Below are positions 624 to 13,992 of a stretch of DNA of 32,000 nucleotides, in pieces. Source of the stretch: Longivirga aurantiaca (GTDB lineage: Bacteria > Actinomycetota > Actinomycetes > S36-B12 > CAIYMF01); assembly GCF_042660085.1 (NCBI RefSeq), contig NZ_JBHSTI010000002.1:120001-152000 (forward strand), read 5' to 3'. The position numbers and the translations under genes were made by a program. The notes below the pieces were generated by a model. It did no database searches. It had not been told where the DNA came from and saw only the letters and a program-made list of their open reading frames with translations. Each line of letters opens with the position of its first letter. Positions within the stretch are counted from its first letter, which is position 1.

Positions 624-685
624 CGCCTCACGCACCGAAGTCCCAGAAAACCGTTGCGGTTTGTGGCACTTCGGTGCGTGAGGCG
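624..685. terminator. 62-nt nested hairpin, probable bidirectional intrinsic terminator between convergent genes
   Basis: Perfect 18-bp inverted repeat CGCCTCACGCACCGAAGT (624-641) / ACTTCGGTGCGTGAGGCG (668-685). It encloses an inner AAACCG-TTG-CGGTTT hairpin (648-662) with T-rich runs after it on both strands. It sits between stop 611 (+) and stop 690 (-). Confidence 0.7.
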
Positions 686-689
686 TGGG

Positions 690-1436
690 TCAGTGCACCT
701 CGTGCCCGCCGGACACGTTGACCGCCTGGCCCGTCACGAACGACGAGCGCTCGTCGACGAGGTGGGCGACCGCGTGGGCGACGTCGTCCGGCGTGCAGGC
801 CCGCCCGAGCGGGATCTCGGCCACGAACCGGTCGCGCCAGCCCGCGGTGTCGACCTCGGCGTATGCGTGCGCGAAGTCCTCGGCCAGGCTCTCCATCATC
901 GCGGTGTCGCAGATGACCGGGCAGACGCAGTTGACCGTGACCCCGGTGCCCACGAGCTCGAGCGCGAGCGACTGCGCGAACCCGATGACGCCGAACTTGG
1001 ACGCGCAGTAGTGGGCGATCCCGGGCTCGCCCGTCTTGCCGGCGTCCGACGAGATGCACACGACGCGGCCGCGCGGCGAGCGGCGCAGCAGCGGCAGGCA
1101 GGCCTGCACCGCGAGGAAGGTGCCGGTGAGGTTCACGGTGAGCACGCGGTCCCACTGCGCGCGGCTCATCGTCTCGACAGGCGCGACGTCGATGACGCCC
1201 GCGCAGGTGATGACGGCGTCGAGCCTGCCGAGCTCGGTCTCGACGGTGCTCGCGAGCGCGGCCACCGACGCCTCGTCGGTGACGTCGCACGCCACCCACC
1301 GGTCCGGCCCGGGCACCGCGTCGGCGCGGTCGCTGCCCACGACGAGCCAGCCGTCGTGCTGCAGCCGGGCGGTGATGGCGCGGCCGATGCCTCCGGCGGC
1401 GCCGGTCACCACGGCCACGGGCGGCGAGGTGCTCAT
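690..1436 (-). CDS. Short-chain dehydrogenase/reductase (SDR), classical type
   Basis: ATG at 1436 (cat 1434-1436), stop tca 690-692. Motifs: VAVVTGAAGGIGRA (TGxxxGIG cofactor site), NLTG, SSDAG, YCASKFG (YxxxK). The 121 upstream residues of the track ORF (to 1799) are Arg/Pro/Gly junk overlapping the BVMO gene. ATGA overlap with the BVMO stop (1433-1436). Confidence 0.9.
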   Translation of the reverse strand: MSTSPPVAVVTGAAGGIGRAITARLQHDGWLVVGSDRADAVPGPDRWVACDVTDEASVAALASTVETELGRLDAVITCAGVIDVAPVETMSRAQWDRVLTVNLTGTFLAVQACLPLLRRSPRGRVVCISSDAGKTGEPGIAHYCASKFGVIGFAQSLALELVGTGVTVNCVCPVICDTAMMESLAEDFAHAYAEVDTAGWRDRFVAEIPLGRACTPDDVAHAVAHLVDERSSFVTGQAVNVSGGHEVH

Positions 1437-2908
1437 CGGACCTCGACCGAGCGGAACCGCGCGAGCTTGGTGCGCAGGATGTACGAGCTCGCCGAGAACG
1501 GCCACTGCGACACCACCCTGCCGGTGCCGGCCTTGAAGTAGCTGGTCGTCTCCGCCCACACCGTCCGGCGCAGCTGGGCCTGGACCCAGTCGTTGAACTT
1601 CCGGAACGCCTCCGGGTTCACCGTGATGAGCGACCGGGAGGGGTCCTTCAGCTTCGCGATCAGCGAGGCGGCGAAGTCCGCCTGGGCCTCGTAGAACGAC
1701 ACGAGGGGCACGGCGTTGGTGTTGGGGCCGTACATCATGAAGAAGTTCGGGAAGCCGGGGACCATCATGCCGAGCAGGGCCTCGGGCTCGCCGTCCCACA
1801 CCTTCTGCAGGTCCGCGCCGCCCTCACCCGTGACCTGGTAGCTGCTGAGGTAGTTCGCGGCATCGAACCCCGTGGCGAAGATGACGATGTCGACGGGGTG
1901 CTCGGTGCCGGAGGCGTCGACGACCCCGGTGCGCGTGAGCGACGTCACCGCGCGGGGCACGAGGTGCACGTGGTCCTGCTTCAGCGTGGGGTAGTACGTG
2001 TCGCTGATGACCGTGCGACGTCCCTCGAACGGGAACTCGGGCGTGCAGGCCTCGACCAGGTCGGGCCGGTCGCCGAGCGACTGGCGCAGGTACTCGAGCG
2101 AACGCACGCGGCGCTCACGGTGGGCCTTGCCGTCGGTCCGGGCGTGCTGCGACCGTGCCTGCCGCAGGTCGTATTCGGCATACAGCTTGAACCGCTTCCA
2201 CCGGTAGACGAGCGGGTTCCTGCTCGCCTCGCGCTCCTCGGGGGTGAACGCCCGGCTGTTCTTGGGCAGCAGCCAGTTGGGCTCGATCTGGAAGATCGTG
2301 ACGTCGCTCGCCACGGCGGCGGCCTCGACGATGATCTGGACCGCGGACGAGCCGGTGCCGAGCACCGCCACCCGCTTGCCCGTCATGTCCAGGCCCTCCG
2401 GCCACGTCGACGTGTGGCACATGACGCCCTCGAACTCCGTCTCGCCGCGCGCGAACGGCGGGATGAGCGGGACGTTGAGGAAACCGACGGCGCTGATGAC
2501 TGCGCTGAAGGTGCCGAAGTCCTCCCCGGAGGCCGTCGTGAGCGACCAGGTGCGGGTGTCGTCCGACCACGTGACCGACTCGACCTTCTCCTCGAACCGC
2601 ATGTGCTCGAGGAGGCCCCACTTGGTGGCCACGCGGCGGAGGTAGTCGAGCAGCTCGTGCCACTCGACATGGGTGCGGGTCCAGTCCGAGTGCTCGAACG
2701 AGAACGAGTAGATGTGCGACTCGAGGTCGACCTCGGCCCCGGGATAGCGGTTGGCCCACCACGTGCCGCCGACGTCCGGGTACTTGTCGAAGATGACGAA
2801 GTCCTCGATGCCCTTGCGGCGGAGCTCGACACCCGCGGCGATGCCGCTGAAGCCGGCACCGATGACGGCGACCCGCGGGCGGCCGGGCGTGGGGAGCGGT
2901 GGTGTCAC
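1433..2908 (-). CDS. Type I Baeyer-Villiger monooxygenase (class B flavoprotein monooxygenase)
   Basis: FAD Rossmann VAVIGAGFSG, GGTWWANRYPGAEVD, BVMO fingerprint FxGxxxHxxxWP = FEGVMCHTSTWP, second Rossmann VLGTGSSAVQ. I place the start at GTG 2908, which has GGGAGGA (2914-2920, minus strand) 5 nt upstream. The track start at 3001 adds 31 residues with no RBS. Confidence 0.9.
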   Translation of the reverse strand: MTPPLPTPGRPRVAVIGAGFSGIAAGVELRRKGIEDFVIFDKYPDVGGTWWANRYPGAEVDLESHIYSFSFEHSDWTRTHVEWHELLDYLRRVATKWGLLEHMRFEEKVESVTWSDDTRTWSLTTASGEDFGTFSAVISAVGFLNVPLIPPFARGETEFEGVMCHTSTWPEGLDMTGKRVAVLGTGSSAVQIIVEAAAVASDVTIFQIEPNWLLPKNSRAFTPEEREASRNPLVYRWKRFKLYAEYDLRQARSQHARTDGKAHRERRVRSLEYLRQSLGDRPDLVEACTPEFPFEGRRTVISDTYYPTLKQDHVHLVPRAVTSLTRTGVVDASGTEHPVDIVIFATGFDAANYLSSYQVTGEGGADLQKVWDGEPEALLGMMVPGFPNFFMMYGPNTNAVPLVSFYEAQADFAASLIAKLKDPSRSLITVNPEAFRKFNDWVQAQLRRTVWAETTSYFKAGTGRVVSQWPFSASSYILRTKLARFRSVEVR

Positions 2909-3179
2909 GAGGATCCTCCCGGGCCTCACGTCCGTGCATGCGTCGCTCGCCGACGGTGGGTGCGGGCCCAGGGCGAGGGTAAGGCCCACAATGTAGACCA
3001 AAGTGCCGGGCTGTCAACCCTTTCCCAGATCGGAACGGACGCAACGCCATCGACCCGCCTGCGCAACCTGTGCGCAACCCGCAGGAAGCCCCTGACCGCG
3101 GGTAATGGTCCATTCTCTTGCTGTTTTGTTCGACGCAGGATAGGAAAGCCTTCTCACATCCCGACGCCGAGGAGCGTGC
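2909..3179. promoter_or_regulatory. Divergent promoter/operator region shared by the BVMO-SDR unit and the 11-gene plus-strand operon
   Basis: 271-nt gap with an AT-richer core (about 3101-3160). TGCGCAACC direct repeat at 3060-3068 and 3071-3079, plus CGCAAC at 3040-3045 (offsets of 22 and 11 nt). Inverted repeat AATGG-T-CCATT at 3104-3114. TTGCTG at 3118-3123 is a weak -35 candidate. SD GAGGAG 3169-3174 lies 5 nt before ATG 3180. Exact promoter elements are not resolved. Confidence 0.55.
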
Positions 3180-3902
3180 ATGTCTACGGTCGTGGTCACG
3201 GGCGGCGCCGGCGGGATCGGCATGGCGATCTGCCGCCGTGTGGTGGAGGCAGGTCACCTCGCGGTGGCGGCCGACGTCGCGGTCGCGATCGAGGCTCACG
3301 GCGGTGCTGACGAGCCCGGCGTGAGCTTCGTCGAGATGGACGTGACCGACCGCGCGAGCATCGAGCGGGCCGTCGCCTCGATCGTCGCCGAGGGGCACAC
3401 CGTCACCGGGCTGGTGAACTGCGCCGGGGTCCTGCGCGACACGTTCCTCGGGTCGCTGTCGGACGACGACATGCGCTTCATGTTCGAGGTCAACGTGGCC
3501 GGCATGGCACGCGTGACCGACGTCGTCGCCCCGCACCTCGTGGACGGCGGCGCCATCGTCAACATCGGGAGCCTCACCGGCCAGATGGGCCGGTTCGTGG
3601 GCGCCTCGGTGTACGGCGCGACGAAGGCGGGCGTGGCCGGCTACACGCGCTACCTCGCGATGGAGCTCGCACCGCGCGGGATCCGCGTGAACAACGTCGC
3701 CCCCGGGGTCATCGACCTCCCCATGAGCCGGTCGATGGACGCGATCTCGGGCGGGCCGGTGGAGTCGGCGAAGCACGTCCCGCTCGGCCGACTCGGCACG
3801 GCCGAGGAGGTCGCCGAGGTCGTCGAGTTCCTCCTCTCGTCCCGGGCGTCGTACGTCACGGCCCAGACGCTGCTCGTGGACGGCGGGTTCATCGCATGGT
3901 GA
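3180..3902 (+). CDS. SDR family oxidoreductase
   Basis: VVVTGGAGGIGMA cofactor motif, NCAG, NIGS, YGATKAG (YxxxK), PGVIDLPM. Good SD upstream. First gene of the plus-strand operon. Confidence 0.9.
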   Translation: MSTVVVTGGAGGIGMAICRRVVEAGHLAVAADVAVAIEAHGGADEPGVSFVEMDVTDRASIERAVASIVAEGHTVTGLVNCAGVLRDTFLGSLSDDDMRFMFEVNVAGMARVTDVVAPHLVDGGAIVNIGSLTGQMGRFVGASVYGATKAGVAGYTRYLAMELAPRGIRVNNVAPGVIDLPMSRSMDAISGGPVESAKHVPLGRLGTAEEVAEVVEFLLSSRASYVTAQTLLVDGGFIAW

Positions 3903-5155
3903 CCCACGCGGACATCGACGCGGCCAATGCGCGCGCGCTCGAGCTGCTCGGCGCCGCGGACCCCGTGGTCGTCGACGTACGCACCGCCGGGGAGGTGCTG
4001 CCGGGCTACCGGCCCAACCTGATCCTCACCTCCGGCGCGCCCATGCCGTGGTCGGAGTACGTCGGCGGGCAGCGGGACGCCCTCATCGGGGCGGCGCAGT
4101 TCGAGGGCCTGGCCGCGAGCCGCGAGGAGGCCATCGAGGGGTTCGAGTCCGGCGACATCGAGGTCGGCTCGTGCCACGACCACGGCGCCGTCGGGTCGTT
4201 GGCCGGCGTCTACTCCGCGTCGATGCCCGTGTTCGTGGTGGAGAACCGGGCGACCGGGGCGCACGGCTACTGCAACTTCTACGAGGGCAAGGAGCCTCGC
4301 CGGCTCAACTACGGCTGCTACGACGAGGGCGTCCACGAGCGGCTGCTGCACGTCAACCGGGTGCTCGCCCCCGTGGTCGGCGAGGCGATCCGCCGCACCG
4401 GCGGCGTGGCGCTGAAGCCGCTGATCTCGCGCGCGCTGCGCATGGGCGACGAGGTGCACAGCCGCAACGCGGCGGCGTCGATGCTGTTCAGCCGCGAGCT
4501 CCTGCCCGCGTTCCTCGACCAGGTCGCGACCGACCGGGACGGTGTCACGGAGACGGCGACGCACCTGGCCGAGAACGACTACTTCTTCCTTCGCCTGTCG
4601 ATGGCCGCGGCCAAGGCCACCGCCGACTCGATCATCGGGCTCGAGAACTCGACCGTGGTCAGCGCCATGGCCTTCAGCTGCCAGGGGTTCGCCATCCGCG
4701 TGGCCGGCACCGGCACACAGTGGTTCACCGGACCGCCGCCGGTCCACGAGGGCCGGCTCTTCGCCGGCCACACCGAGGACGAGATCACGTGGATGGGCGG
4801 GGAGAGCCCCATCACCGAGACGATCGGCCTCGGCGGGTTCGCCCAGGCCTGCGCACTGTCGCTGCAGGAGTACCAAGGAGGGTCGCCCGAGGTCATGATC
4901 GAGCGCAACAAGGAGATGTACGGCATCACGGTCGGGGAGAACCCCGACTACCGCATCCCGCTCTTCGCGTTCCGCGGCACGCCCACGGGCATCGACGTCC
5001 GCAAGGTGCTCGCGACCTCGGTGCTGCCGGTGATGGACGTGGGCCTCGCGGGGCGCGACGGCGGCCAGATCGGCGCCGGGGTGATCCGGGCCCCGCGCGA
5101 GTGCTTCGAGTCAGCTGCGTCCGGGTTCGAGGCGCAGTACGGGATCGCGCTGTGA
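3896..5155 (+). CDS. DUF1116 (YlbE-like) domain protein
   Basis: The N-terminal ANARALE..., LILTSGAPMPW, GAAQFEGLA, IEVGSCHDHGAVGSLAGVYSASMPVFVVEN and CNFYEGKEP..LNYGCY pattern matches my recollection of the YlbE/DUF1116 family. The ATG at 3896 overlaps the upstream stop by 7 nt. The alternative GTG at 3899 would give a GTGA overlap. Confidence 0.75.
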   Translation: MVTHADIDAANARALELLGAADPVVVDVRTAGEVLPGYRPNLILTSGAPMPWSEYVGGQRDALIGAAQFEGLAASREEAIEGFESGDIEVGSCHDHGAVGSLAGVYSASMPVFVVENRATGAHGYCNFYEGKEPRRLNYGCYDEGVHERLLHVNRVLAPVVGEAIRRTGGVALKPLISRALRMGDEVHSRNAAASMLFSRELLPAFLDQVATDRDGVTETATHLAENDYFFLRLSMAAAKATADSIIGLENSTVVSAMAFSCQGFAIRVAGTGTQWFTGPPPVHEGRLFAGHTEDEITWMGGESPITETIGLGGFAQACALSLQEYQGGSPEVMIERNKEMYGITVGENPDYRIPLFAFRGTPTGIDVRKVLATSVLPVMDVGLAGRDGGQIGAGVIRAPRECFESAASGFEAQYGIAL

Positions 5156-5910
5156 CCCGCGACCTCGAGGGCCTCCGCGCCCTCGTCACGGGCGGCACCC
5201 GCGGCATCGGCCGGGGCATCGTCGACACCCTCGTCGCGCGCGGCGCGACGGTGGTGGCCTCGGGCCGTGACACGGAGGCGGGCGAGGCTCTCGCTGCGGC
5301 CGTGCCCGAGGTCAGCTTCCTCCCGGCCGACCTGCGCGACACGGCGTCGGTCGCCGGGCTCGTCGACGGTGCCGTGCGCGCGCTCGGCGGCCTTGACATC
5401 CTCTGCCACTGCGCGGGCATCTACCCCGAGCACCCGATCGGCTCGATGCTCGACGGCGACTGGCACGACGTCATCGACACCAACCTGACCAGCGCCATGG
5501 CGCTGGTGCGCGCCGCGCTCCCCGCCCTGCAGGCCTCCGGCTCGGCGCGGGTCGTGCTGGTCAGCTCGATCTCCGGACCGCGCACGGGCATCAGCGGTCT
5601 GACCCACTACTGCGCGTCCAAGTCCGGCCTCGAGGGGTTCGCGCGCGCGGCCGCCGTGGAGCTCGCGGGCTCCGGGATCACCGTCAACTGCGTGGCACCC
5701 GGGACGATCCTCACCGAGGGGCTCGCCGCCCTCTACTCCGAGCCCGGCGTCATGGACGACGTCATCGGCCGCATCCCCGCAGGCCGCATCGGCGCACCGT
5801 CGGACATCGGCAACGCCGTGGCGTTCCTCGCCTCACCGGCGTCGTCCTTCGTGACGGGCCAGTCGATCACGGTCGACGGCGGGCAGACCCTGCCCGAGGT
5901 GCAGGGCTAG
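5152..5910 (+). CDS. SDR family oxidoreductase
   Basis: GTG 5152 overlaps the upstream TGA (GTGA). Motifs: ALVTGGTRGIGRG, HCAG, SSISG, YCASKSG, PGTILT. The upstream 368 residues of the track ORF 4048..5910 are an Arg-rich alternate frame of the DUF1116 gene. Confidence 0.9.
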   Translation: MTRDLEGLRALVTGGTRGIGRGIVDTLVARGATVVASGRDTEAGEALAAAVPEVSFLPADLRDTASVAGLVDGAVRALGGLDILCHCAGIYPEHPIGSMLDGDWHDVIDTNLTSAMALVRAALPALQASGSARVVLVSSISGPRTGISGLTHYCASKSGLEGFARAAAVELAGSGITVNCVAPGTILTEGLAALYSEPGVMDDVIGRIPAGRIGAPSDIGNAVAFLASPASSFVTGQSITVDGGQTLPEVQG

Positions 5911-5912
5911 AC

Positions 5913-6692
5913 GTGGCGGGCACCTCGCGCATCGAGCTGGAGCTCTCCGGGGCGACCGCGCTCGTCACCGGCGCCGCCTCGGGGATCGGGCTCGCGACCA
6001 CGCGCATGCTCGGCGCCGCGGGCGTCCGGGTGCTCGCCGTCGACGTCGCCGCAGGGCTCGAGGACTCGGTGCGCGACCTCGTGACCGCCGGCTGCGACGT
6101 CGTCGCCGTGCGCCACGACATCACCGACGAGGAGGGTCTCGTCGCCGCGCTGGAGGCGGCGGGCGCGGACGGCCTCGCCTACGTCGCCAACTGCGCCGGG
6201 ATCCATCAGCAGCGCTCGTTCGACGACATCACGCTCGACGAGTGGCGCCGCATGCTCGAGGTGAACCTGCTCGGCGCGTTCGCCGTCACGAGGGCCGCGG
6301 CACGCTGGCTGAGGGCCAGCGGCGGCGGCGCCGTCGTCAACGTCACCTCGACCGAGGCCGAGCGCGTCATCGCGCTCGTGAACCCGGACGCCGTGCCGCA
6401 CTACGCGGCGTCCAAGGCGGCCCTCGCGATGCTGACCCGGAGCGAGGCGCACGCGCTCGCCGCCTACGGCATCCGCGTGAACGCCGTCGCACCCGGCTTC
6501 GTCGCGACGCCGATGACCCGGGGCAACCACGACGCATCCGATCTCCCCGAGCCCGCGCGGGCGCGAGCGCTCATCCAGCGCTACGCCGAGCCCCAGGAGA
6601 TCGCCGTAGCGGTCTGCTTCCTGCTCTCGGACGGGGCCGGCTTCATCACCGGCACGACGCTGCACGTGGACGGCGGCTACCTGGTCACGTGA
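5913..6692 (+). CDS. SDR family oxidoreductase
   Basis: GTG 5913 lies 2 nt after the upstream TAG. Motifs: ALVTGAASGIGLA, NCAG, YAASKAA, PGFVATPM. Confidence 0.88.
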   Translation: MAGTSRIELELSGATALVTGAASGIGLATTRMLGAAGVRVLAVDVAAGLEDSVRDLVTAGCDVVAVRHDITDEEGLVAALEAAGADGLAYVANCAGIHQQRSFDDITLDEWRRMLEVNLLGAFAVTRAAARWLRASGGGAVVNVTSTEAERVIALVNPDAVPHYAASKAALAMLTRSEAHALAAYGIRVNAVAPGFVATPMTRGNHDASDLPEPARARALIQRYAEPQEIAVAVCFLLSDGAGFITGTTLHVDGGYLVT

Positions 6693-6756
6693 CCGGCGAT
6701 GTGGCTCGATCTCGCGCTGCCCTGACGGGCGGCACCCCTGAGCGGTAGGAAGAGGC

Positions 6757-7803
6757 ATGGCGGACACCACGCGGTTCGAGGCGTTCCTCGGACGTGACGC
6801 GCGCGCGGGCTCCTGGGAGGAGCTCTCCCGCGGCACGTACCGCGTGATCCTCGAGGCCCTCGACTCCGGTGAGTGGCACGTGGCCGAGGAGCTGCTGCCC
6901 GTGACGATCCTCGAGGCCGAGGAGCTGCACGGCATCTACGGCGTCTGGCCGGGCCAGATCGCGCAGTTCCTCCTGGCCGAGGGCGCCGGGACGGACGAGG
7001 TGGACGCCGGGAGGCGGCGCCTCTGGACCGCGATCGGCGACGGCACCGAGCCCGACTGGGAAGGGGCCTGGCAGCGGTACCTCGAGCACACCGCCACGGC
7101 AGCATCGCTGGCCGCGGTCCGCGACGAGGGCACTCGCGAGGCGGTGCTGCGCGCGCACGAGACCTGGCGGGCGGCGCACGACCAGGCCGTCGACCACGTC
7201 TACGGCCTGGTCGACCTCTGCTTCCGGCTGCTGGGCGAGGGCTCGGTGCCGCGGGTCTGGGACCACCTCATGTCGCCCTGGTACGACGACCACGCCACGA
7301 GGCTGTCCACGGCGAACCAGCCGTGGTCGGAGTCGGCGCGGCAGCTGAAGCTCGCGATCGTGGACGGGTTCCACGCGCACCTGTCGGGCACCGACCGCCT
7401 CGGCGACGTCGAGCTGATCACCGAGCCGGGCCGCACCGGCTTCCGGTTCGCCCCCTGCGGATCCGGCGGGCGCGTGCTGCGCGACGACACCACCGGCGGC
7501 CGGCCGCGGGTCGAGGAGCCGTTCGCGTTCTCCGTGACGACCGAGCCGCACGACTGGTCGTTCGGAGAGGCCGGCGTCTGCACCTACTGCGTGCACTGCT
7601 GCCTGCTCAACATGACGATGCCGATGGACCGGCTCGGCTACCCGACCCGGGTCATCGAGCCGCCGACGTGGCCGGACGCCCGGGAGGGCGGCACCTGCAC
7701 CTGGTGGGTGTACGACGACCCGTCGCTGGTGCCCGATTCGGTGTACGAGCGGGTCGGGCGCACACCTGACCGGCGACCCCGTCCCCAGGAGGAGCAGCAG
7801 TGA
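6757..7803 (+). CDS. Hypothetical protein, helical N-terminal half and Cys-rich C-terminal half (CxxCxxCC), possible Fe-S or metal site
   Basis: 348-aa ORF with normal, non-junk composition and G/C-dominated third positions. SD GGAAGAGG at 6748-6755. Cys residues: PCGSGG (7456), CTYCVHCC (7579-7602), GTCTWW. Its stop overlaps the GTG of the next gene (GTGA at 7800-7803). I recognise no family. Confidence 0.75.
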   Translation: MADTTRFEAFLGRDARAGSWEELSRGTYRVILEALDSGEWHVAEELLPVTILEAEELHGIYGVWPGQIAQFLLAEGAGTDEVDAGRRRLWTAIGDGTEPDWEGAWQRYLEHTATAASLAAVRDEGTREAVLRAHETWRAAHDQAVDHVYGLVDLCFRLLGEGSVPRVWDHLMSPWYDDHATRLSTANQPWSESARQLKLAIVDGFHAHLSGTDRLGDVELITEPGRTGFRFAPCGSGGRVLRDDTTGGRPRVEEPFAFSVTTEPHDWSFGEAGVCTYCVHCCLLNMTMPMDRLGYPTRVIEPPTWPDAREGGTCTWWVYDDPSLVPDSVYERVGRTPDRRPRPQEEQQ

Positions 7804-9116
7804 GCCCCGTCCCCCTCACCCAGCTCGAGGTGCCGGACTACGACCTCGGCCTGCGCGGGAAGCTCGTGCGCAGCGAGAAGCTGACCCGTTCCGGCAAGGC
7901 GGCGTTCTGCACGATCATCTACGGGCTCGACCCCGCGGACGGCGTCGCCGACACGCCTCTGTCGTCGGCGGCGAACGGCTACCCCGACGCGTTCGCCGTG
8001 CCGGACGAGTCGACCCGCGTCCAGCTGCCGTGGCGCCGCGCGACCGAGGCCGTGATCGCGGACATGGTCGACGACGACGGCGCACTGCTCGAGGAGTCGC
8101 CGCGCACGGTGCTCGCTCGGGTCGTGGCCGGCTTCGCCGAGCTCGGCCTCGTGCCCGTGCTCGGCTTCGAGTACGAGTGCTACGTGCTGCACGCGGACGA
8201 CGACGTCCTGCGTCGCGGCGACTACGCCTCGCTGCGCGCGCTGGGCCGGGTCGACAACGCGTACAGCATCGGGCGGCACACCGAGAGCGCCGACCTGCTC
8301 GGCGAGTTCATCGACCGGATGGACTCGATCGGCATCCCGGTGGAGGCCGCGCACTCCGAGCTGGGCCCGGGCTTCTTCGAGTTCGCGATGTCGCCGATGG
8401 ATGCCATGCGGGCCGCCGACAGCGCCGTCCGCGCACGCCAGTACTTCCGCGACCTGTGCGCCGAGCGAGGGCTGGTCGCGACCTTCATGGCCAAGCTGCG
8501 GATCGAGGCGTCGGGCTCCGGCGGCCACGTGCACCAGAGCGTGACGCGCGACGGCGTCAACCAGTTCTCCGACGGCGCGAACGGCCTGTCGGACACCGGC
8601 CGCGCCTACCTCGGCGGGCTCGTGCGCAGCATGGGCGACTACACGGTGCTGCTCAACCCGCTCCTCAACTCCTACAAGCGCATCAGCGCCGGCTTCTTCG
8701 TCGCCGAGAGGGCGACGTGGGGCTGGGACAACCGCAACGCCGCCTGCCGCGTGGTGCACAACGCGGGGTCGGCCGCGACGCGGGTGGAGCACCGGCGTCC
8801 AGGCGCCGACGCCAACCCGTACCTCGTGGCCGCCGCGCTGCTCGCGGGCGGGCTCGAGGGGCTGCGCGACGGCCTCGACCCGGGCGACCCGCTCGAGGTC
8901 GGGTCGGACATCGCGACGGCAGGGGACGCGCTGCCCTCGACCCTGCCGACGGCCATCGCGGCGTTCCGGGGCTCGAGCCGGGCCCGCTCGATGCTCGGCG
9001 ACCGGTTCGTCGACTGCTACGCCGCCACCCGGGACGCCGAGGTGGCCGCGTTCGAGACCTGGTGGAACACCTCCATCACCGACTGGGAACTTCGCCGCTA
9101 CGTGGAGCACCTGTGA
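7800..9116 (+). CDS. Glutamine synthetase-like ATP-dependent gamma-glutamyl ligase (type I GS catalytic domain), paralog 1
   Basis: GS catalytic motifs GFEYECYV (ExE), ELGPGFFEF, GSGGHVHQS, NSYKRI, RVEHRRPGADANPYL. Confidence 0.88.
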   Translation: MSPVPLTQLEVPDYDLGLRGKLVRSEKLTRSGKAAFCTIIYGLDPADGVADTPLSSAANGYPDAFAVPDESTRVQLPWRRATEAVIADMVDDDGALLEESPRTVLARVVAGFAELGLVPVLGFEYECYVLHADDDVLRRGDYASLRALGRVDNAYSIGRHTESADLLGEFIDRMDSIGIPVEAAHSELGPGFFEFAMSPMDAMRAADSAVRARQYFRDLCAERGLVATFMAKLRIEASGSGGHVHQSVTRDGVNQFSDGANGLSDTGRAYLGGLVRSMGDYTVLLNPLLNSYKRISAGFFVAERATWGWDNRNAACRVVHNAGSAATRVEHRRPGADANPYLVAAALLAGGLEGLRDGLDPGDPLEVGSDIATAGDALPSTLPTAIAAFRGSSRARSMLGDRFVDCYAATRDAEVAAFETWWNTSITDWELRRYVEHL

Positions 9117-10489
9117 CCTCATCGCCCCTGATCACGTACGTCGAACTGCTGGAGCTCGCCCGCCAGGGCGAGGTCGACACCGTCGTCTGCGGCACGCCCG
9201 ACCCGGTCGGGCGCATCGTCGGCAAGCGCCTCACGGTGCCGGCGTTCACGACGCTCTGCGTCGAGGGCGAGGGGATCGGCGCGAGCACGTTCGTCTTCGC
9301 CGTCGACGTCGAGATGACACCGCTCGACCTCCCGGTGTCGAGCGCGGAGAACGGCTGGGCCGACTTCCGGCTGGTGCCGGACATGGCGACCATGCGCCGC
9401 ATGCCGTGGGAGCCGCGCTCGGTCTTCGTCCTGTGCGACGCGTACGAGATGGGGAGCGACGACCTCGTGGCGGTCGCGCCCCGGACGATCCTGCGCCGGC
9501 AGATCGAGCGGGCCGAGGCGCTCGGCCTCCGGTTCAAGTTCGCCTCCGAGCTCGAGTTCTTCCTGTCGAGCACGCCGCAGGCCGAGGCGTGGAGGCGCCG
9601 CTACCGCGACCTCGAGCCGCTCACGCCGTACCGCAACGACTACCAGGTGCTGCAGGGCGGCCGGGACGAGTGGTTCATCTCCCAGGTCCGCAACCACATG
9701 AGCGACTGGGGCATCCCGATCGAGTCGTCCAAGCCCGAGTGGGGGCTCGGCCAGCAGGAGGTCACGCTCGACTACACGAGCACCCTCGAGATGGCCGACC
9801 GGCACGTGCTCTTCAAGTACGGCGTGAAGGAGCTCGCCCACCGCGCCGGGCTCACCTGCACGTTCATGGCGAAGCCGGCCATCGACGAGGTCGGCTCGTC
9901 GTGCCACCTGCACGTGAGCATGTGGGACCTCGACGACAACCCGGTCTCGTGGGACGGCACCGGGCCCGCCGGCATGTCGGCCAGGTTCGGGAGCTTCCTG
10001 TCGGGCCAGCTCGCCCACGTGCTCGACCTCGGTCTGCTCCTCGCCCCGACGGTCAACTCCTACAAGCGGTTCCAGCCCGACCAGTTCGCCGGCACCGCGA
10101 TCGCGGTCGGTGTCGACAACCGCTCGTGCGCGTTCCGCCTCGTCGGCCGGGGCCCGTCGTTCCGCATGGAGAACCGCATCCCGGGCGCCGACGTGAACCC
10201 GTACTACGCCTACTCCGCCACGATCGCCGCCGGTCTAGCCGGGATCGAGGCGGGCGCCGCGTCGCCGGAGCTGCACTCGGGCAACGCGTGGACCGACGGC
10301 GACCTCGCGACGATGACGACGTCGCTCCACCGCTCGGTCGACCGGTTCGCCGCGGCCGAGGTGGCGCGCGACGCCTTCGGTGACGACGTGTTCGAGCACC
10401 TGCTGCAGAGCGCCCGCGCCGAGGTGCTGGCGTTCGACTCCGGCTGCGTGACGGACTGGGAGCTCGTCCGCTACTACGAGCGGGTCTGA
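9113..10489 (+). CDS. Glutamine synthetase-like ATP-dependent gamma-glutamyl ligase, paralog 2
   Basis: GTG 9113 overlaps the upstream TGA (GTGA). Motifs: PDPVGRIVGKRL N-terminal domain, ASELEFFL (ExE), EWGLGQQEV, GSSCHLHVS, NSYKRF, RMENRIPGADVNPYY. The upstream part of the track ORF 8030..10489 is an alternate-frame artefact. Confidence 0.88.
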   Translation: MTSSPLITYVELLELARQGEVDTVVCGTPDPVGRIVGKRLTVPAFTTLCVEGEGIGASTFVFAVDVEMTPLDLPVSSAENGWADFRLVPDMATMRRMPWEPRSVFVLCDAYEMGSDDLVAVAPRTILRRQIERAEALGLRFKFASELEFFLSSTPQAEAWRRRYRDLEPLTPYRNDYQVLQGGRDEWFISQVRNHMSDWGIPIESSKPEWGLGQQEVTLDYTSTLEMADRHVLFKYGVKELAHRAGLTCTFMAKPAIDEVGSSCHLHVSMWDLDDNPVSWDGTGPAGMSARFGSFLSGQLAHVLDLGLLLAPTVNSYKRFQPDQFAGTAIAVGVDNRSCAFRLVGRGPSFRMENRIPGADVNPYYAYSATIAAGLAGIEAGAASPELHSGNAWTDGDLATMTTSLHRSVDRFAAAEVARDAFGDDVFEHLLQSARAEVLAFDSGCVTDWELVRYYERV

Positions 10490-10490
10490 G

Positions 10491-11222
10491 GTGGGCGGCC
10501 GTCGTCCGGTCATCGGCGTCACGGGCTTCCACGAGCAGTGGGCGTTCGAGCACGGCAGCTACCTGTTCACCGCGACCGAGCGGGTCTTCACCGACGGTCT
10601 GCTCGAGGCCGGCGGGCTCCCGGTGCTGCTCATGAGCGCGGCCGAGACGACCGACGACGCGGTCGCGATGCTCGACGGGCTGCTGCTCACGGGCGGTGCC
10701 GACGTGGAGCCGTCTCACTACGGGCGGGAGGTGGCGCCGGAGACCGGGACGCCCGACCACGAGCGCGACGCGTTCGAGATCGCACTCGTCCGGGCAGCCG
10801 TCGACCGGGGCCTGCCCGTGCTGGCGGTCTGCCGGGGCAACCAGGTCGTCAACGTGGCGCTCGGTGGCGAGCTCGTGCAGCACGCACCGACGCACCAGGG
10901 CTACGGCCACCCCACGGTCGGCTTCCACGACGTCGACGTCGCCGCCGGCTCGCGGCTCGCCTCCGTGCTGGGCGCAGGGAACCATCCGGTGAACTCCCTG
11001 CACCACCAGACCGTAGGCAGCACGGCCCCCTCGCTGCGTGCCGTCGCGCACACGGCCGACGGCTCGGTCGAGGCGACCGAGCACCCCGACCAGCCGCTGA
11101 TCACCGTGCAGTGGCACCCCGAGCGCCAGCTCGACAACGACTACTGGTCGCGCCTCGCGTCCTGGCTCGTGCGCGAGGCCAGGACGTACTCGTCCCGCAC
11201 GCCCGAAGGTCAGGAGCCCTGA
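10491..11222 (+). CDS. Gamma-glutamyl-amide hydrolase, class I glutamine amidotransferase-like / peptidase C26 (PuuD-like)
   Basis: LLLTGGADV, AVCRGNQVVNVALGG (nucleophile Cys elbow), NSLHHQ, VQWHPE. GTG lies 1 nt after the upstream TGA. Confidence 0.88.
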   Translation: MGGRRPVIGVTGFHEQWAFEHGSYLFTATERVFTDGLLEAGGLPVLLMSAAETTDDAVAMLDGLLLTGGADVEPSHYGREVAPETGTPDHERDAFEIALVRAAVDRGLPVLAVCRGNQVVNVALGGELVQHAPTHQGYGHPTVGFHDVDVAAGSRLASVLGAGNHPVNSLHHQTVGSTAPSLRAVAHTADGSVEATEHPDQPLITVQWHPERQLDNDYWSRLASWLVREARTYSSRTPEGQEP

Positions 11223-12148
11223 TGCCGCTGCACCCCGTCGCCGCCCAGATGGTCGAGGACGCCAAGACCGGGCGGCCGAACGCCCACCTGCTGCCCGTCG
11301 AGGAGGCCCGCGCCAACTTCGAGAGCGACTTCGGCTCGCTGCCCAAGCCGGCCATCGCCCGCAGCGAGGACGTCGAGATCCCGGTGCGGGACACCGTGAT
11401 CCCCGGCCGGGTCCTCTCGGACACGACCGAGCCGGGCGCGCCGCTGCTCGTCTTCTTCCACGGCGGAGGCTGGCTGCTCGGCAGCATCGACAGCCACGAC
11501 ATGATGGCGCGCAAGATCGCGATCGCGACCGGCTGCGTCGTCCTCAGCGTCGGCTATCGGCGCGGCCCCGACTCGCGGTTCCCGACCGCCACCGATGACG
11601 CGCTCGACGCCGTGCGGTGGGCCGTGGCGAACGCCGACATGCTGGGTGCGGACGCGTCGCGGCTCGTCCTCGCGGGAGACAGCGCCGGCGGCAACCTCGC
11701 CGCGGTCACCGCGATCCGGTGCCGGGACGAGGGCGGCCCCGCGGTGACGCACCAACTGCTGGTCTACCCGGTGACGACCTGCGACCTGGAGATCGGGTTC
11801 GACCCGGAGTGGGAGGGCGTCATGCTCTACCGCGACGAGATGCTGTGGCACCAGGAGCACTACCTGCCGGGGCCCGAGGCCCGGACCGACCCGCACGTGG
11901 CGCCGCTGCTGGCCGATCTCGCCGGTCTCCCGGCCGCCACCGTCGTCCTCGGCGAGTGCGACCCGATCCGTCCGCAGGGCCGCCTCTATGCCGAGGCGCT
12001 GGCGGCAGCGGGCGTGCCCGTGCAGGTCGAGGAGTACGCGAGCCTGGTGCACGGGTTCTTCGGCCTCGAGATGCTCTTCCCCGAGGCCGCCGCGGCGATG
12101 GACTTCGCCGGCGCTGCGGTGCGCGCTGCCGTCGGGACGACGGCATGA
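11222..12148 (+). CDS. Alpha/beta hydrolase, hormone-sensitive-lipase (family IV) type esterase
   Basis: ATG 11222 shares one base with the upstream TGA (TGATG). Motifs: FFHGGGWLLGS oxyanion-hole HGGG, AGDSAGGNLAA nucleophile GDSAG, CDPIRPQG, LVHGFF. Confidence 0.88.
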   Translation: MPLHPVAAQMVEDAKTGRPNAHLLPVEEARANFESDFGSLPKPAIARSEDVEIPVRDTVIPGRVLSDTTEPGAPLLVFFHGGGWLLGSIDSHDMMARKIAIATGCVVLSVGYRRGPDSRFPTATDDALDAVRWAVANADMLGADASRLVLAGDSAGGNLAAVTAIRCRDEGGPAVTHQLLVYPVTTCDLEIGFDPEWEGVMLYRDEMLWHQEHYLPGPEARTDPHVAPLLADLAGLPAATVVLGECDPIRPQGRLYAEALAAAGVPVQVEEYASLVHGFFGLEMLFPEAAAAMDFAGAAVRAAVGTTA

Positions 12149-12894
12149 GCGAGGCCCGGCGCCCGACCGCTGTGGTCACCGGCGCAGGCGGGGGCATCGG
12201 CCTCGTAACGGCGCTGCGGCTCGACCGCGACGGCTACCGCGTGTGGGCCGTCGACGTGAAGGACGCGGCGCCCGAGCTCGCCGGGACAGGGATCGTCGCC
12301 GTACGTGCTGATCTCACCGACCCGGCCGCGCCGGCCGCGCTCCTCGCGGAGCATCTGGGCGACGACGGGCTCGATGCGCTGGTCAACGCGGCCGGCGTCG
12401 CGTTCTTCGACCGGGACGTCTCCGCCCTCGACGTCGACGAGGAGCTCTGGAGCCGCACGTTCGCGGTCAACCTCGACGGCATGCGCCGGATGAGCGCCGC
12501 GGCGGTGCCCTACATGCGACGCACGGCGGGCGCCGCGATGGTGCACGTCGCGAGCATCGCCGGCCTCCGCGGGATGGACTCGCCGATGGACGCCTACCAG
12601 GTGAGCAAGGCCGGCGTCGTGTCGCTCTCGCGCAGCATCGCCGTGCAGCTCGGGCCGGAGGGCATCCGGTCCAACACCGTGTGCCCCGGCGCGGTGCTCA
12701 CACCGATGATCGCCCACCTGTACGACGAGGCGCCGGAACGCCGGACGCGGATGGAGGGCAAGACCCCGCTGCGCCGGCTCGGCAGGCCCGAGGACATCGC
12801 CGCGGCGGTCCGCTGGCTGCTCTCGAGCGAGGCCTCGTTCGTCACGGGCACCGACCTGGTGGTGGACGGCGGATGGATCGCGCAGATCGTATGA
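12145..12894 (+). CDS. SDR family oxidoreductase
   Basis: ATGA overlap at 12145-12148. Motifs: AVVTGAGGGIGLV, NAAG, ASIAG, YQVSKAG, PGAVLTPM. Confidence 0.9.
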   Translation: MSEARRPTAVVTGAGGGIGLVTALRLDRDGYRVWAVDVKDAAPELAGTGIVAVRADLTDPAAPAALLAEHLGDDGLDALVNAAGVAFFDRDVSALDVDEELWSRTFAVNLDGMRRMSAAAVPYMRRTAGAAMVHVASIAGLRGMDSPMDAYQVSKAGVVSLSRSIAVQLGPEGIRSNTVCPGAVLTPMIAHLYDEAPERRTRMEGKTPLRRLGRPEDIAAAVRWLLSSEASFVTGTDLVVDGGWIAQIV

Positions 12895-13691
12895 GCCCAG
12901 CCTCCGTCCCGCGGCGCTCACCTATGCTTCCGAGAACTGCAGGCATCGACGAAGGGCGCTCTGTGACGACGTCGCCGTACGGACTCCAGCCCGTGCGCAC
13001 GCGGTCCGCCCACGAGCTGGTGCTGCAGCAGATCGAGACCGCGATCAACCTGGGCCGGTTCCGGCCCGGCGACCGGCTCCCCACCGAGCGCGACCTCGCC
13101 GACATGCTGCACGTCTCGCGCACCACGGTGCGCGAGGCGATCGCGGTGCTCGAGAACCGCGGCGTCATCGAGGTACGTCGGGGCCGCAACGGCGGGGCGA
13201 TCGTGCTCGACGTCGTGCGCACCAAGGCCGATCTGCGCAAGCTCCTGCGCGCCAACCGCGACCAGCTGCGCGACACGTTCGACTTCCGGGTGGCCGTCGA
13301 GTCGGCCGCCGCGCGCCTCGCGGCCGAACGCCGTACGGCTGCGGACATCGACACCCTGCGGCGCCTCGTCGACATGCTGTCGCTCGTGGTCGAGAGCCCT
13401 GCCGAGGTGAGCGGGTCGGCCCGCTTCGCGCAGTTCCAGAACCTCGACTCGCAGTTCCACCTCGCCATCGCGCACGCGGCCGGGAGCCAGCGGCTCGCGA
13501 CCGCGATCCTCGAGTCGCGCAGCGCGATGTTCCTGCCGGTGGGTGCGGTCTTCACCGATCTCGAGCCCACGGCCAACGACCTGCACGAGGCGGTGGTCGA
13601 GGCGATCGTCGCCGCCGACGGCGACGAGGCCGCGCGCGTGATGGCCGAGCACATCAACGTGACCCGGTCGACGGTCGAGGGCTGGCTCTGA
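12891..13691 (+). CDS. GntR-family transcriptional regulator, FadR subfamily (FCD ligand domain)
   Basis: Winged HTH LPTERDLADMLHVSRTTVREAIAVLENRGVIEVRRGRNGG. FCD-type helices FRVAVESAAARLAA and FHLAIAHAAGSQRL. I prefer the start at ATG 12891 because it forms an ATGA overlap like the rest of the operon. ATG 12924 or GTG 12963 remain possible. Confidence 0.8.
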   Translation: MSPASVPRRSPMLPRTAGIDEGRSVTTSPYGLQPVRTRSAHELVLQQIETAINLGRFRPGDRLPTERDLADMLHVSRTTVREAIAVLENRGVIEVRRGRNGGAIVLDVVRTKADLRKLLRANRDQLRDTFDFRVAVESAAARLAAERRTAADIDTLRRLVDMLSLVVESPAEVSGSARFAQFQNLDSQFHLAIAHAAGSQRLATAILESRSAMFLPVGAVFTDLEPTANDLHEAVVEAIVAADGDEAARVMAEHINVTRSTVEGWL

Positions 13692-13713
13692 CCCGACCGC
13701 TTCGTCGCACTCG

Positions 13714-13992
13714 TCAGGCGACGACCAGCACCGCGTTGTCGCCGTTGCGCTCGGGGGCCTCGGGCTCGTCGAGCCAGGTGCCGCCCTCGCCGAGGTAGCG
13801 GAACTCGAACCGCCCCTCGGCGACCTCCACCTTGGCGCTGCGGGTGCCGTTCCACCGGCGGACGAGCGGGTTCGCGCCCGGCGTCCAGCCGTTGAAGTCG
13901 CCGACCACGCTCACCGGCCCGTCGTGCACGTCGCCGGGCAGCACGAACGTCACCGTCGTGCCGCCCTTGCGGGACCTCGCCACCTTGATCAT
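13714..13992 (-). CDS. Small stand-alone glycogen-binding (CBM48 / AMPK-beta GBD-like, early-set) domain protein
   Basis: 92 aa. VTFVLPGDV...VSVVGDFNGWTP...PLVRR..G....VEVAEGRFEFRYL is the typical CBM48 pattern. SD GAGAGGTG lies upstream of ATG 13992. Confidence 0.75.
   Translation of the reverse strand: MIKVARSRKGGTTVTFVLPGDVHDGPVSVVGDFNGWTPGANPLVRRWNGTRSAKVEVAEGRFEFRYLGEGGTWLDEPEAPERNGDNAVLVVA

Follow-up and report, generated by a model that had tools for sequence, protein, structure and literature searches.

We analyzed a 32-kb window, i.e. the whole stretch of Longivirga aurantiaca DNA under study. Calling genes and coordinates from third-position GC, we observed a tightly packed cluster of 13 open reading frames at 690–13691, and the coordinates, families and motifs that the original prediction had given for them were all borne out, with Pfam assignments matching every family it had named (Table 1). 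Overlaps of 1–7 nt occur at 8 of the 11 gene junctions: the plus-strand spacings from g03 to g13 are −7, −4, +2, +64, −4, −4, +1, −1, −4 and −4 nt, and on the minus strand g02 and g01 overlap by 4 nt. Position 2908 is the most likely start of g02; for g13, alternative possible starts lie at 12924 and 12963.

Table 1. Features of the cluster and their family assignments
Feature	Coordinates	Strand	Assignment (E-value)
g01, classical SDR	690–1436	−	Pfam adh_short_C2, 2e-52
g02, type I BVMO, short, 491 aa	1433–2908	−	Pfam FMO-like + Pyr_redox_3
Divergent control region, common to both units	2909–3179		
g03, SDR, opens plus-strand operon	3180–3902	+	Pfam adh_short_C2, 4e-54
g04, stand-alone AllG/DUF1116	3896–5155	+	Pfam AllG, 2.7e-74
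g05, SDR	5152–5910	+	Pfam adh_short_C2, 4e-59
g06, SDR	5913–6692	+	Pfam adh_short_C2, 2e-56
g07, orphan protein, 348 aa	6757–7803	+	No Pfam or NCBIfam match
g08 (GS1), GS-like ligase	7800–9116	+	Pfam Gln-synt_C, 1e-79
g09 (GS2), GS-like ligase	9113–10489	+	Pfam Gln-synt_C, 1e-78
g10, peptidase C26/class I amidotransferase-like gamma-glutamyl hydrolase	10491–11222	+	Pfam Peptidase_C26, 5e-58
g11, hormone-sensitive-lipase (HSL)-type esterase	11222–12148	+	Pfam Abhydrolase_3, 6e-66
g12, SDR	12145–12894	+	Pfam adh_short_C2, 4e-53
g13, FadR-subfamily GntR regulator	12891–13691	+	Pfam GntR, 7e-19; FCD, 2e-21

The promoter scan returned a sole sigma-70-like match across 400–14300 (1 observed versus 0.1 expected), located in the control region at 3017–2990 on the minus strand. 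The same region holds TAGACCAAAG at 2994–3003 and the palindrome ATGGTCCAT at 3105–3113, a candidate FadR-type operator that occurs once in the window. In most related loci similar, GACCAA-containing elements, e.g. TTGACCAATAGGTC, were found about 80 nt 5′ of the g03 orthologue, and the regulator gene g13 (orthologues in 49 of 60 loci) is usually divergent from g03.

Conservation was evaluated in two samples, one of 60 related loci and one of 42 loci in which g07 is flanked by 8 kb or more on each side. In the latter, GS1 was observed in 41 loci, GS2 in 40, AllG/DUF1116 in 39, the esterase and the GntR regulator in 38 each, and C26 or GlsA in 35; the BVMO is orthologous in 37 and a displaced classical BVMO is present in 3 more. 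Loci lacking the orthologous BVMO have a different type I BVMO nearby. Reached from the BVMO side, 3 of 3 loci (M. goodii, Methyloligella and Mesorhizobium) share the set, so that the predicted co-conservation of the BVMO and esterase genes with the two GS-like genes, and with g07, is seen from both the g07 and the BVMO side. Shuffled versions occur in Alphaproteobacteria, e.g. in an alphaproteobacterial MAG (L053), and the whole set is co-conserved across phyla, in Actinomycetota as well as in Alphaproteobacteria, despite changes in gene order. The cluster occurs in many soil and freshwater bacteria; Rhodococcus megaplasmids carry it, one copy being flanked by IS elements. Of the originally proposed genes, the minus-strand SDR g01 has an orthologue (at least 55% identity) in just 2 of the 60 loci; it is a lineage-specific accessory gene, translationally coupled to the BVMO gene and outside the conserved set. 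Orthologues of the SDRs g03 (59–82% identity), g06 and g12 were found in 49, 50 and 52 of the 60 loci, and in most relatives a g05-like copy, about 45% identical, adjoins an APC permease gene instead. The cluster contains no transporter, as had been noted, and tblastn with APC permease and glutaminase as probes found no homologue of these two anywhere in the window. Orthologous clusters carry the APC permease in 36 of 42 loci.

Reading the translations, we found the ExE, GSxxHxH, NSYKR, NR..R and ExR motifs in both GS-like ligases, and these catalytic motifs are kept in 54 orthologues of GS1 and 54 of GS2. The two proteins are 31% identical to each other, and the N-terminal region of GS1 is divergent. 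Taking the curated NCBIfam cut-offs as threshold for family membership, both lie below all of them: GS1 and GS2 score 188 and 185 bits with the GlnA profile TIGR00653 (cut-off 429), 199 and 199 bits with the type III GS profile (cut-off 470), and 179 and 185 bits with the PuuA profile (cut-off 650). Assignment to GlnA, type III GS or PuuA was rejected on these scores, which are far under the cut-offs, and the ordinary GlnA identity that had been set beforehand as the test of the prediction is contradicted by them. The top PDB match of GS1 reaches 188 bits; GS2 matches 11zs with 320 bits and 5dm3, presumably the C. salexigens enzyme, with 288 bits. The hydrolase g10 has the CRGNQ, HHQ and WHPE motifs in its translation but shares only 33–43% identity with its C26 counterparts in most related loci, which vary in position and are often joined by a glutaminase. 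The C26 gene is the least faithful member of the cluster, and the C26 genes are not orthologous between lineages.

The translation of the BVMO g02 contains two Rossmann motifs as well as GGTWWANRYPGAEVD (residue 47) and FEGVMCHTSTWP (residue 159). Its closest PDB entries are CHMO, STMO and PAMO (E ~1e-62), the similarity covering mainly the N-terminal half, and orthologues with 57–66% identity were found in 48 of the 60 loci. Type I BVMOs are also known to oxidise heteroatoms. The esterase g11 shows the HGGG and GDSAG motifs in its translation and has orthologues in 50 of the 60 loci; the usual order is esterase–SDR–BVMO, and in most loci these genes lie directly 3′ of the GS genes in one operon, whereas in this window the BVMO gene belongs to a separate divergent transcription unit.

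For g07 no match was found in Pfam, NCBIfam, PDB sequences, PDB profiles or Foldseek, and it represents an orphan Cys/His-rich family, which comprises 659 clusters at 50% identity. The predicted model (AF2 mean pLDDT 86) is a helical bundle with a Cys-rich C-terminal part; C234, C278, C281, C314, H141, H179, H206, H208, H280, D142, E53 and E56 are invariant in the family, and g07 always lies directly 5′ of GS1, overlapping its start. The protein g04 is the most conserved of the cluster (orthologues in 50 of the 60 loci, 72–84% identity across actinobacterial loci) and matches the uncharacterized protein 3clq of the PDB with 254 bits. Its family, DUF1116 in the original prediction, is termed ‘AllG’ in current Pfam naming and is shared with E. 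coli AllFGH, an oxamate carbamoyltransferase (PMC11326118). Pfam assignments revealed no AllF/FdrA or AllH (DUF2877) partner among the cluster genes, and the allantoin context is absent as well; therefore, the cluster was rejected as an OXTCase.

A literature search found no paper on a pathway joining GS-like ligases to Baeyer–Villiger chemistry, in line with the original prediction that such a gamma-glutamyl pathway is undescribed. Because no described pathway fits the cluster, it probably encodes an unstudied degradation route for a small amine. The FadR-type repressor, the APC permease, GlsA, the location on Rhodococcus megaplasmids and the IS-flanked copy point to a catabolic character, and the combination of gamma-glutamylation with a Baeyer–Villiger step is supported by GS-like ligases that are not GlnA and by the co-conservation of BVMO and esterase with this pair. 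On balance, we favour GntR-controlled catabolism of a small primary amine with a secondary alcohol or methyl ketone adjacent to or near the nitrogen, with an order of steps that we infer. Our first guess would be that a vicinal amino alcohol or an amino-ketone, e.g. 1-aminopropan-2-ol or aminoacetone, serves as substrate.

After uptake through the APC permease, which related clusters encode and this window lacks, the amine would be gamma-glutamylated by the two ATP-dependent GS-like ligases, which may handle two enantiomers or two related substrates; GS1 may have g07 as its partner. An SDR would oxidise the alcohol to an N-protected amido-ketone, the masked nitrogen stabilising an otherwise self-condensing alpha-aminoketone. 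Baeyer–Villiger oxygen insertion would then yield an acetate ester, from which hydrolysis by the HSL-type esterase would set acetate free and leave a gamma-glutamyl carbinolamide or alcohol. Further SDR oxidation could follow and, speculatively, the AllG-like protein might cleave the resulting N-acyl/N-formyl glutamine, before the C26 hydrolase and/or glutaminase would recover glutamate and ammonia. Acetate is the likely product because an acetate–CoA ligase (Acs), scoring above the equivalog cut-off, lies directly 3′ of the BVMO gene in three Rhodococcus loci; this adjacency, limited to Rhodococcus, agrees with a route from methyl ketone to acetate ester. The glutaminase seen in 22 of the 60 loci is consistent with glutamine as end product. 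The conserved set includes neither an aldehyde dehydrogenase nor a gene for formaldehyde handling, and the 4–5 SDRs exceed the needs of this simple scheme. The originally proposed scheme was supported overall, although it gave no role to the AllG-like protein and g07, each of which could alter the chemistry entirely. One locus (L003) is a BVMO-less variant in which a g07–GS1–C26–GS2–SDR module lies beside two APH kinases, matching 6ef6 of the PDB with 308 bits, and a class III aminotransferase closest to ethanolamine-phosphate phospho-lyase. Entry 6ef6 is presumably the 1-amino-2-propanol kinase of M. smegmatis, and together with the similarity of GS2 to 5dm3 these kinases give a hint of an amino-alcohol substrate, drawn from one MAG locus and two PDB entries.

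Plain alkylamines such as propyl- or butylamine are an unlikely alternative substrate, although they keep more weight than the readings below. Here g07 would be a new metallo-oxygenase that hydroxylates the glutamylated chain, a task that falls to a P450 in Ipu and Pip, with SDR, BVMO and esterase finishing subterminally. The helical bundle with invariant H141/D142, H179, H206/H208, E53/E56 and four Cys, the constant position beside the GS genes and a cluster with no other oxygenase would suit this role, and these genera commonly oxidise alkanes subterminally via BVMO and esterase (see also PMC13609444). However, the predicted g07 structure matches no known oxygenase, its metal site is read from sequence alone, and a reductase or ferredoxin partner is not conserved. 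We consider it improbable that an alicyclic amine (e.g. cyclohexylamine) or an inosamine-type aminocyclitol is glutamylated, oxidised at its ring hydroxyls by the several SDRs, lactonised as ring ketone by the BVMO and ring-opened by the esterase as lactonase. Such substrates were among the classes originally suggested, numerous SDRs suit a poly-hydroxylated ring, and the closest solved BVMOs are cyclohexanone monooxygenases; yet the BVMO is of the short 491-aa type with PDB similarity mainly in its N-terminal half, HSL-type esterases are atypical as lactonases, Acs in Rhodococcus indicates acetate and hence an open-chain methyl ketone, and the permease is of the APC amino-acid/amine type. Still less probable is that the GS-like proteins, rather than masking a catabolic amine, join glutamate to some different nucleophile, e.g. 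a hydrazine, hydroxylamine or amino acid, or that the set makes a small metabolite: scores below every curated family cut-off, the AllG-like protein and g07 leave scope for unusual chemistry, but biosynthetic core enzymes are absent and repressor, permease, glutaminase, Acs and plasmid/IS context indicate catabolism. That a ketone/ester unit merely neighbours an unrelated gamma-glutamyl amine unit, as the divergent BVMO unit of this window might suggest, is very improbable and strongly disfavoured by the operon that esterase, SDR and BVMO share after the GS genes in most loci, by a set that survives rearrangements and spans phyla, and by the replacement of an absent BVMO with another.

Several known systems resemble the cluster in part. 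Acetone (AcmA/AcmB, Gordonia sp. TY-5), MEK (MekA/MekB, P. veronii) and subterminal alkane routes share the enzyme order secondary alcohol dehydrogenase, type I BVMO, esterase, but their ketones contain no nitrogen, and they lack genes for GS-like ligases and gamma-glutamyl hydrolases. The Puu (putrescine), Ipu (isopropylamine), Pip (piperidine) and Tdn/Atd/Npa (aryl amine) pathways have the same pair of GS-like ligase and C26/GATase-like hydrolase and a common protect–oxidise–deprotect logic; they oxidise by an oxidase, P450 or dioxygenase (for the Npa pathway see PMC11335346). Unlike this cluster, none of them is known to have a BVMO plus esterase. Glutamylation-type ethanolamine utilisation in S. 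coelicolor involves GlnA4 (SCO1613), the repressor EpuRI and SCO1611/1612/1615 (PMC6529630), and a similar pathway predicted for C. salexigens is cited in the same paper. By gene type this system shares with our cluster a GS-like ligase masking a small amino alcohol, a repressor encoded close by (in most loci related to ours, transcribed divergently from the operon), a dehydrogenase proposed to act on a gamma-glutamyl intermediate, an amidohydrolase freeing glutamate and an amino-acid/ethanolamine-type permease, here found in related clusters. In contrast, our cluster has two GS-like genes, no aldehyde dehydrogenase, a C26 hydrolase in place of the formylglutamate-amidohydrolase type, and additionally BVMO, HSL esterase, 4–5 SDRs, AllG-like protein and g07. 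The substrate class suspected for our cluster is handled by the M. smegmatis aminoacetone/1-amino-2-propanol pathway with SDR dehydrogenase, APH-type kinase, phospho-lyase and RMM microcompartment (Mallette and Kimber 2018, in PMC8007038). It proceeds by phosphorylation and elimination to propionaldehyde, with neither glutamylation nor a BVMO. Kinase, lyase and shell genes are absent from this window, while homologues of this kinase and phospho-lyase adjoin the g07–GS–GS–C26 module in L003.

Because the G+C content of the window is ~71%, we called genes from third-position GC. These calls, Pfam assignments and motif reading confirmed the divergent cluster of 13 open reading frames in the original prediction, with the protein families and motifs it had named: a minus-strand unit of 2 genes and a plus-strand unit of 11 (see table). 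The junctions of the plus unit measure, in order, -7, -4, +2, +64, -4, -4, +1, -1, -4 and -4 nt, a spacing that indicates an operon with translational coupling. Between 400 and 14300 we observed a single sigma-70-like promoter match, on the minus strand at 3017-2990 within the shared intergenic region, which favours the BVMO start at 2908. The sequence TAGACCAAAG overlaps this promoter, and the palindrome ATGGTCCAT occurs once in the 32 kb, at 3105-3113 in the same intergenic region. The regulator g13 combines an N-terminal GntR winged helix with a C-terminal FCD domain and thus belongs to the FadR subfamily of GntR proteins. An exact-palindrome operator search across related loci had little yield; k-mer enrichment across the loci found a GACCAA-type element, and in most of the loci from mycobacteria and rhodococci a GACCAA-containing inverted repeat, TTGACCAATAGGTC, precedes the g03 orthologue by ~80 nt. 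The arrangement fits one FadR-type repressor that would control both units at these candidate operator elements.

Genes of the cluster, their positions in the window and their occurrence in related loci (empty cells, no value given)
Gene	Position	Strand	Assignment	Loci (of 60)	Full loci (of 42)
g01, SDR	690-1436	-	overlap of 4 nt with BVMO	2	
g02, BVMO	1433-2908	-	Pfam	48	37
g03, SDR	3180-3902	+	Pfam	49	
g04, AllG/DUF1116	3896-5155	+	Pfam	50	39
g05, SDR	5152-5910	+	Pfam		
g06, SDR	5913-6692	+	Pfam	50	
g07, 348-aa unknown protein	6757-7803	+	no Pfam match		
g08, GS-like GS1	7800-9116	+	Pfam 1e-79	57	41
g09, GS-like GS2	9113-10489	+	Pfam 1e-78	55	40
g10, peptidase C26	10491-11222	+	Pfam		
g11, Abhydrolase_3 esterase	11222-12148	+	Pfam 6e-66	50	38
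g12, SDR	12145-12894	+	Pfam	52	
g13, GntR/FCD regulator	12891-13691	+	Pfam GntR 7e-19, FCD 2e-21	49	

The two GS-like proteins had been predicted to be distinct from ordinary GlnA, and their scores bear this out: GS1 and GS2 reached 188 and 185 bits against the GlnA model TIGR00653 (cut-off 429) and 199 bits each against the type III GS model TIGR03105 (cut-off 470), far under both cut-offs, so that a GlnA identity of type I or type III could be ruled out. Their scores against the PuuA model NF045547 (179 and 185 bits) also fall below its equivalog cut-off of 650. Both carry a Gln-synt_C domain with the intact metal, ATP and glutamate motifs of PuuA-, GlnA2-4- and IpuC-type enzymes (ExE, GSxxHxH, NSYKR, NR..R and ExR), and they are 31% identical to each other. 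Because all catalytic motifs are kept across 54 orthologues of each, GS1 and GS2 look like active ligases. GS1 is the more divergent, with 188 bits to the PDB and an unaligned N-terminal part; GS2 matches the PDB entries 11zs (320 bits) and 5dm3 (288 bits), the latter of which we take to be a GS-like enzyme of Chromohalobacter salexigens. PMC6529630 cites a glutamylation-based ethanolamine pathway for C. salexigens. With g10, which has the motifs CRGNQ, HHQ and WHPE, the cluster unites GS-like ligases and a C26/GATase-type hydrolase, the combination found in gamma-glutamyl pathways. All four type I BVMO motifs (two Rossmann motifs, FxGxxxHxxxW[P/D] and [A/G]GxWxxxx[F/Y]P[G/M]xxxD) are present in g02, the last two as GGTWWANRYPGAEVD and FEGVMCHTSTWP, and its best PDB matches are CHMO, STMO and PAMO. 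The esterase g11 has the HGGG oxyanion and GDSAG nucleophile motifs of the family IV hormone-sensitive-lipase esterases and scored 296 against NCBIfam LipP1, under the cut-off of 350. For the SDRs g03 and g12, PDB and NCBIfam gave only generic FabG/alcohol-dehydrogenase matches, with no substrate information.

As an anchor for the locus search we used g07, the most specific gene. The protein collection contained 215 g07 homologues, all unnamed and mostly from Actinomycetota. Scanning one genome per GTDB species gave 57 loci, or 60 with three plasmid loci added; 42 of them, in which the sequence extends at least 8 kb either way from g07, were treated as full loci. By tblastn with all 13 window proteins we observed a recurring order in which GntR is divergent from g03-AllG-g06-g07-GS1-GS2-esterase-g12-BVMO, often followed by C26. 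The four genes for BVMO, esterase and both GS proteins were all above the identity thresholds in 34 of the 42 full loci. The BVMO and esterase genes are linked: esterase, SDR and BVMO are consecutive in most related loci and lie in divergent units in the window. A C26 or glutaminase gene was present in 35 full loci. C26 is the least faithful member, non-orthologous between lineages and variable in position, with 62% and 55% identity to g10 in the closest relatives (L001 and L003) and 33-43% outside them. The only genome locus arranged like the window is L001, from a Candidatus Nanopelagicales MAG (JBBQAY010000005.1), where BVMO-SDR is likewise divergent, the C26 gene separates GS2 from the esterase, GntR comes last at the 3' end and protein identities are 62-86%; a Logan contig encodes a 99% identical g07 (P0001). 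An alphaproteobacterial MAG has the same set in another order. In three of the full loci where these four genes do not all pass the thresholds (L015, L017 and L018), a different classical type I BVMO lies a few kb upstream, beside a third GS-like gene; its motifs FAGDAFHTAQWP and GGTWYWNRYPGARCD were read directly in L015 and L017, and in L018 it was recognized by tblastn similarity alone. The Baeyer-Villiger step is thus kept by non-orthologous displacement.

Starting from the BVMO side, we inspected the surroundings of three orthologues (62-63% identity). The cluster is complete in M. goodii and dispersed, but including AllG, in Mesorhizobium; in Methyloligella an SDR, an ORF resembling g07, a GATase, the two GS genes, GntR, esterase and BVMO are accompanied by a creatininase-family gene, with no AllG. 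The loci collected from the g07 side and from the BVMO side agree with the expectation that BVMO and esterase co-occur with the GS pair and the unknown ORF, and this co-conservation from both sides indicates that the two GS genes, the BVMO and the esterase form one set. We also recognized that a classical type I BVMO of ~540 aa followed directly by a third GS-like gene recurs in loci without the orthologous short BVMO (L015:300-3750, L017:341-3700, L048:673-3800, and also L011, L014 and L018); L048 shows GGTWYWNRYPGARCD only, L015 and L017 both FAGDAFHTAQWP-type and GGTWYWNRYPGARCD motifs. The creatininase-family amidohydrolase of the alphaproteobacterium Methyloligella sp. 2.7D, which is without AllG/DUF1116, lies at L061:3134-3886 and may be a functional substitute for AllG.

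The g07 protein had no match in Pfam, NCBIfam, PDB sequences or PDB profiles, and Foldseek found no PDB match for its AF2 model (pLDDT 86, pTM 0.86), which consists of a long helical bundle and a C-terminal part poor in regular elements. Its invariant residues, among them C234 (FAPCGSGGR), C278/C281 (YCVHCC), C314, H141/D142, H179, H206/H208 and H280, suggest one or two metal sites. That g07 might be a new oxygenase, with plain alkylamines as the substrates, we regard as unlikely. In the window its stop codon overlaps the GS1 start, and g07 precedes GS1 in nearly all loci. A full HMM search returned 659 clusters at 50% identity, many of which have the C-terminal part alone or with other N-termini. 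The 688-aa protein P0319, whose N-terminus matches g07, contains a Gln-synt_C fragment at 511-563 and represents either a fusion of g07 with GS or a gene call with a frameshift. A distant paralogue on the R. jostii RHA1 plasmid pRHL3 (L060:9839-10606) is 30% identical over the C-terminal 200 residues; it adjoins an IS3 element inside an acetoin/2-oxoacid-dehydrogenase-like E1-alpha/E1-beta/E2/E3 cluster that also has an ADH, an SDR and an AMP-binding enzyme, and this setting is another alpha-substituted methyl ketone context of the g07 family. The most conserved member is the AllG-like protein g04 (72-84% identity). Neither AllF (FdrA) nor AllH (DUF2877) was found among the cluster ORFs or the annotated Rhodococcus clusters, and because these partners are missing and the AllG domain alone is present, we ruled out that g04 is the oxamate carbamoyltransferase AllFGH, which in E. 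coli consists of AllF, AllG and AllH (PMC11326118).

Further genes accompany the cluster in its relatives. An APC-family permease is present in 45 of the 60 loci and the glutaminase GlsA (280 bits; TIGR03814 cut-off 255) in 22, both being absent from the window; an acetate-CoA ligase (Acs), above both curated cut-offs, directly follows the BVMO in three Rhodococcus loci. The cluster is carried on plasmid pR1CP1 of R. opacus 1CP and on a plasmid of R. pyridinivorans SB3094, where it is flanked by IS elements. One variant, L003, is without BVMO, esterase and AllG; its g07-GS1-C26-GS2-SDR module sits beside two APH kinases (308 bits to PDB 6ef6, presumably the M. smegmatis 1-amino-2-propanol kinase) and a class III aminotransferase closest to ethanolamine-phosphate phospho-lyase. 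N,N-dimethylformamidase-family genes lie beside the cluster in two unrelated genera (L058:1-2203 on pR1CP1; L065:1-1401 and L066:11935-14792 in Mesorhizobium sp. CO1-1-8), which may reflect a chemistry of N-formyl or N-acyl amides or may be coincidence.

Several features point to catabolism: a repressor of the FadR type, the permease, glutaminase and Acs genes, and the setting on plasmids and near IS elements. On balance, the cluster probably encodes a gamma-glutamyl-type amine pathway with an oxidative module running from SDR to BVMO to esterase. This combination is the part of the model that we regard as firm; its oxidising enzymes are co-conserved with the ligases and would act on a gamma-glutamylated intermediate. 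With more doubt than confidence we propose as substrate class small amines that carry a secondary alcohol or methyl ketone near the nitrogen, such as 1-aminopropan-2-ol or aminoacetone. A small amino-alcohol or amino-ketone is favoured because the nearest solved relatives of GS2 include a likely ethanolamine-type ligase, and because the L003 module sits with APH kinases and a class III aminotransferase; the position of Acs behind the BVMO speaks for an acetate ester and hence a methyl ketone, and the glutaminase suggests glutamine as a product. Since free alpha-aminoketones self-condense, masking of the amine would be chemically sensible. Baeyer-Villiger insertion beside the nitrogen-bearing carbon would be followed by ester hydrolysis and by collapse or oxidation of the carbinolamide, giving glutamine. 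The substrate and the regiochemistry are putative, as are any roles of the extra SDRs, of AllG and of g07. An alicyclic amine or aminocyclitol as the substrate seems quite unlikely. That the ligases act on a non-amine nucleophile, or that the set is biosynthetic, appears very improbable beside the pointers to catabolism, and a chance meeting of two modules is hardly credible, being strongly disfavoured by the co-conservation data.

The gamma-glutamyl pathway with its Baeyer-Villiger module could further amount to a new C-N bond-breaking route, although that all of its steps hold jointly is improbable. Masking of the amine as its gamma-glutamyl amide would allow an alpha-amido ketone to form; the BVMO would put oxygen between the carbonyl and the nitrogen-bearing carbon, and ester hydrolysis would yield a carbinolamide. 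Its oxidation would give an N-acyl or N-formyl glutamine, cut by the stand-alone AllG-like enzyme or, in some Alphaproteobacteria, by a creatininase-family enzyme in its place; nitrogen would exit as glutamine, hence the glutaminase, and the GS-like ligase would have in g07 a metalloprotein subunit of a new kind. If true, this would give first functions to two uncharacterised families and a new deamination logic.

Bacteria that break down amines without amine oxidases or transaminases do so mainly by gamma-glutamylation, and to our knowledge the oxidative step in every characterised gamma-glutamyl pathway is an oxidase, P450 or dioxygenase. Among known systems, those nearest to the cluster are the ethanolamine pathway of S. 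coelicolor with GlnA4 and EpuRI (PMC6529630) and the Puu, Ipu, Pip and Npa pathways, which glutamylate without Baeyer-Villiger chemistry, and on the ketone side the AcmAB- and MekAB-type routes, which lack glutamylation. Literature searches on GS-like or gamma-glutamyl enzymes with Baeyer-Villiger, esterase, amino alcohol, aminoacetone or DUF1116 returned no description of the cluster; one paper among the matches, on Dietzia proteomics, proved unrelated. If glutamylation is indeed coupled to Baeyer-Villiger and esterase cleavage, this pathway class would gain a new oxidative module, the abundant short BVMOs of biocatalysis interest a natural role, unstable amino-ketones an ATP-dependent N-protection strategy, and the orphan g07 family and lone DUF1116/AllG proteins their first functional contexts. 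With loci in 57 distinct GTDB species, hundreds of metagenomic homologues, copies on Rhodococcus megaplasmids and culturable carriers (R. opacus 1CP, R. pyridinivorans SB3094, M. goodii and M. aurum), this candidate pathway, which includes two unassigned protein families, is widespread, mobile and accessible to experiment.

Elsewhere in the window, a DUF6875 protein (14179-14928) and an 827-aa protein with a lysyl-phosphatidylglycerol synthase TM domain (29296-31779, minus strand) are not conserved with the cluster. The same holds for a Zn-dependent alcohol dehydrogenase (14936-16015, minus strand), whose best match, scyllo-inosose 3-dehydrogenase, is sub-threshold and which we rejected as a formaldehyde dehydrogenase (126 bits; mycothiol-dependent FDH cut-off 513). 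A 521-aa protein with a C-terminal HNH endonuclease domain (17522-19087) precedes an enoyl-CoA hydratase (19210-20055), in a region where long ORFs overlap in the raw ORF list. A beta-eliminating lyase of the tryptophanase/tyrosine phenol-lyase family (20065-21447, minus strand) is divergent from an AsnC/Lrp regulator (21567-22001). Finally, a BetI-type TetR regulator (24675-25277, minus strand) is divergent from a GCV_T aminomethyltransferase-like gene (25373-26572) followed by a flavin amine oxidase (26574-28163), and this stretch resembles another unit for amine or N-methyl oxidation, unrelated to the cluster.
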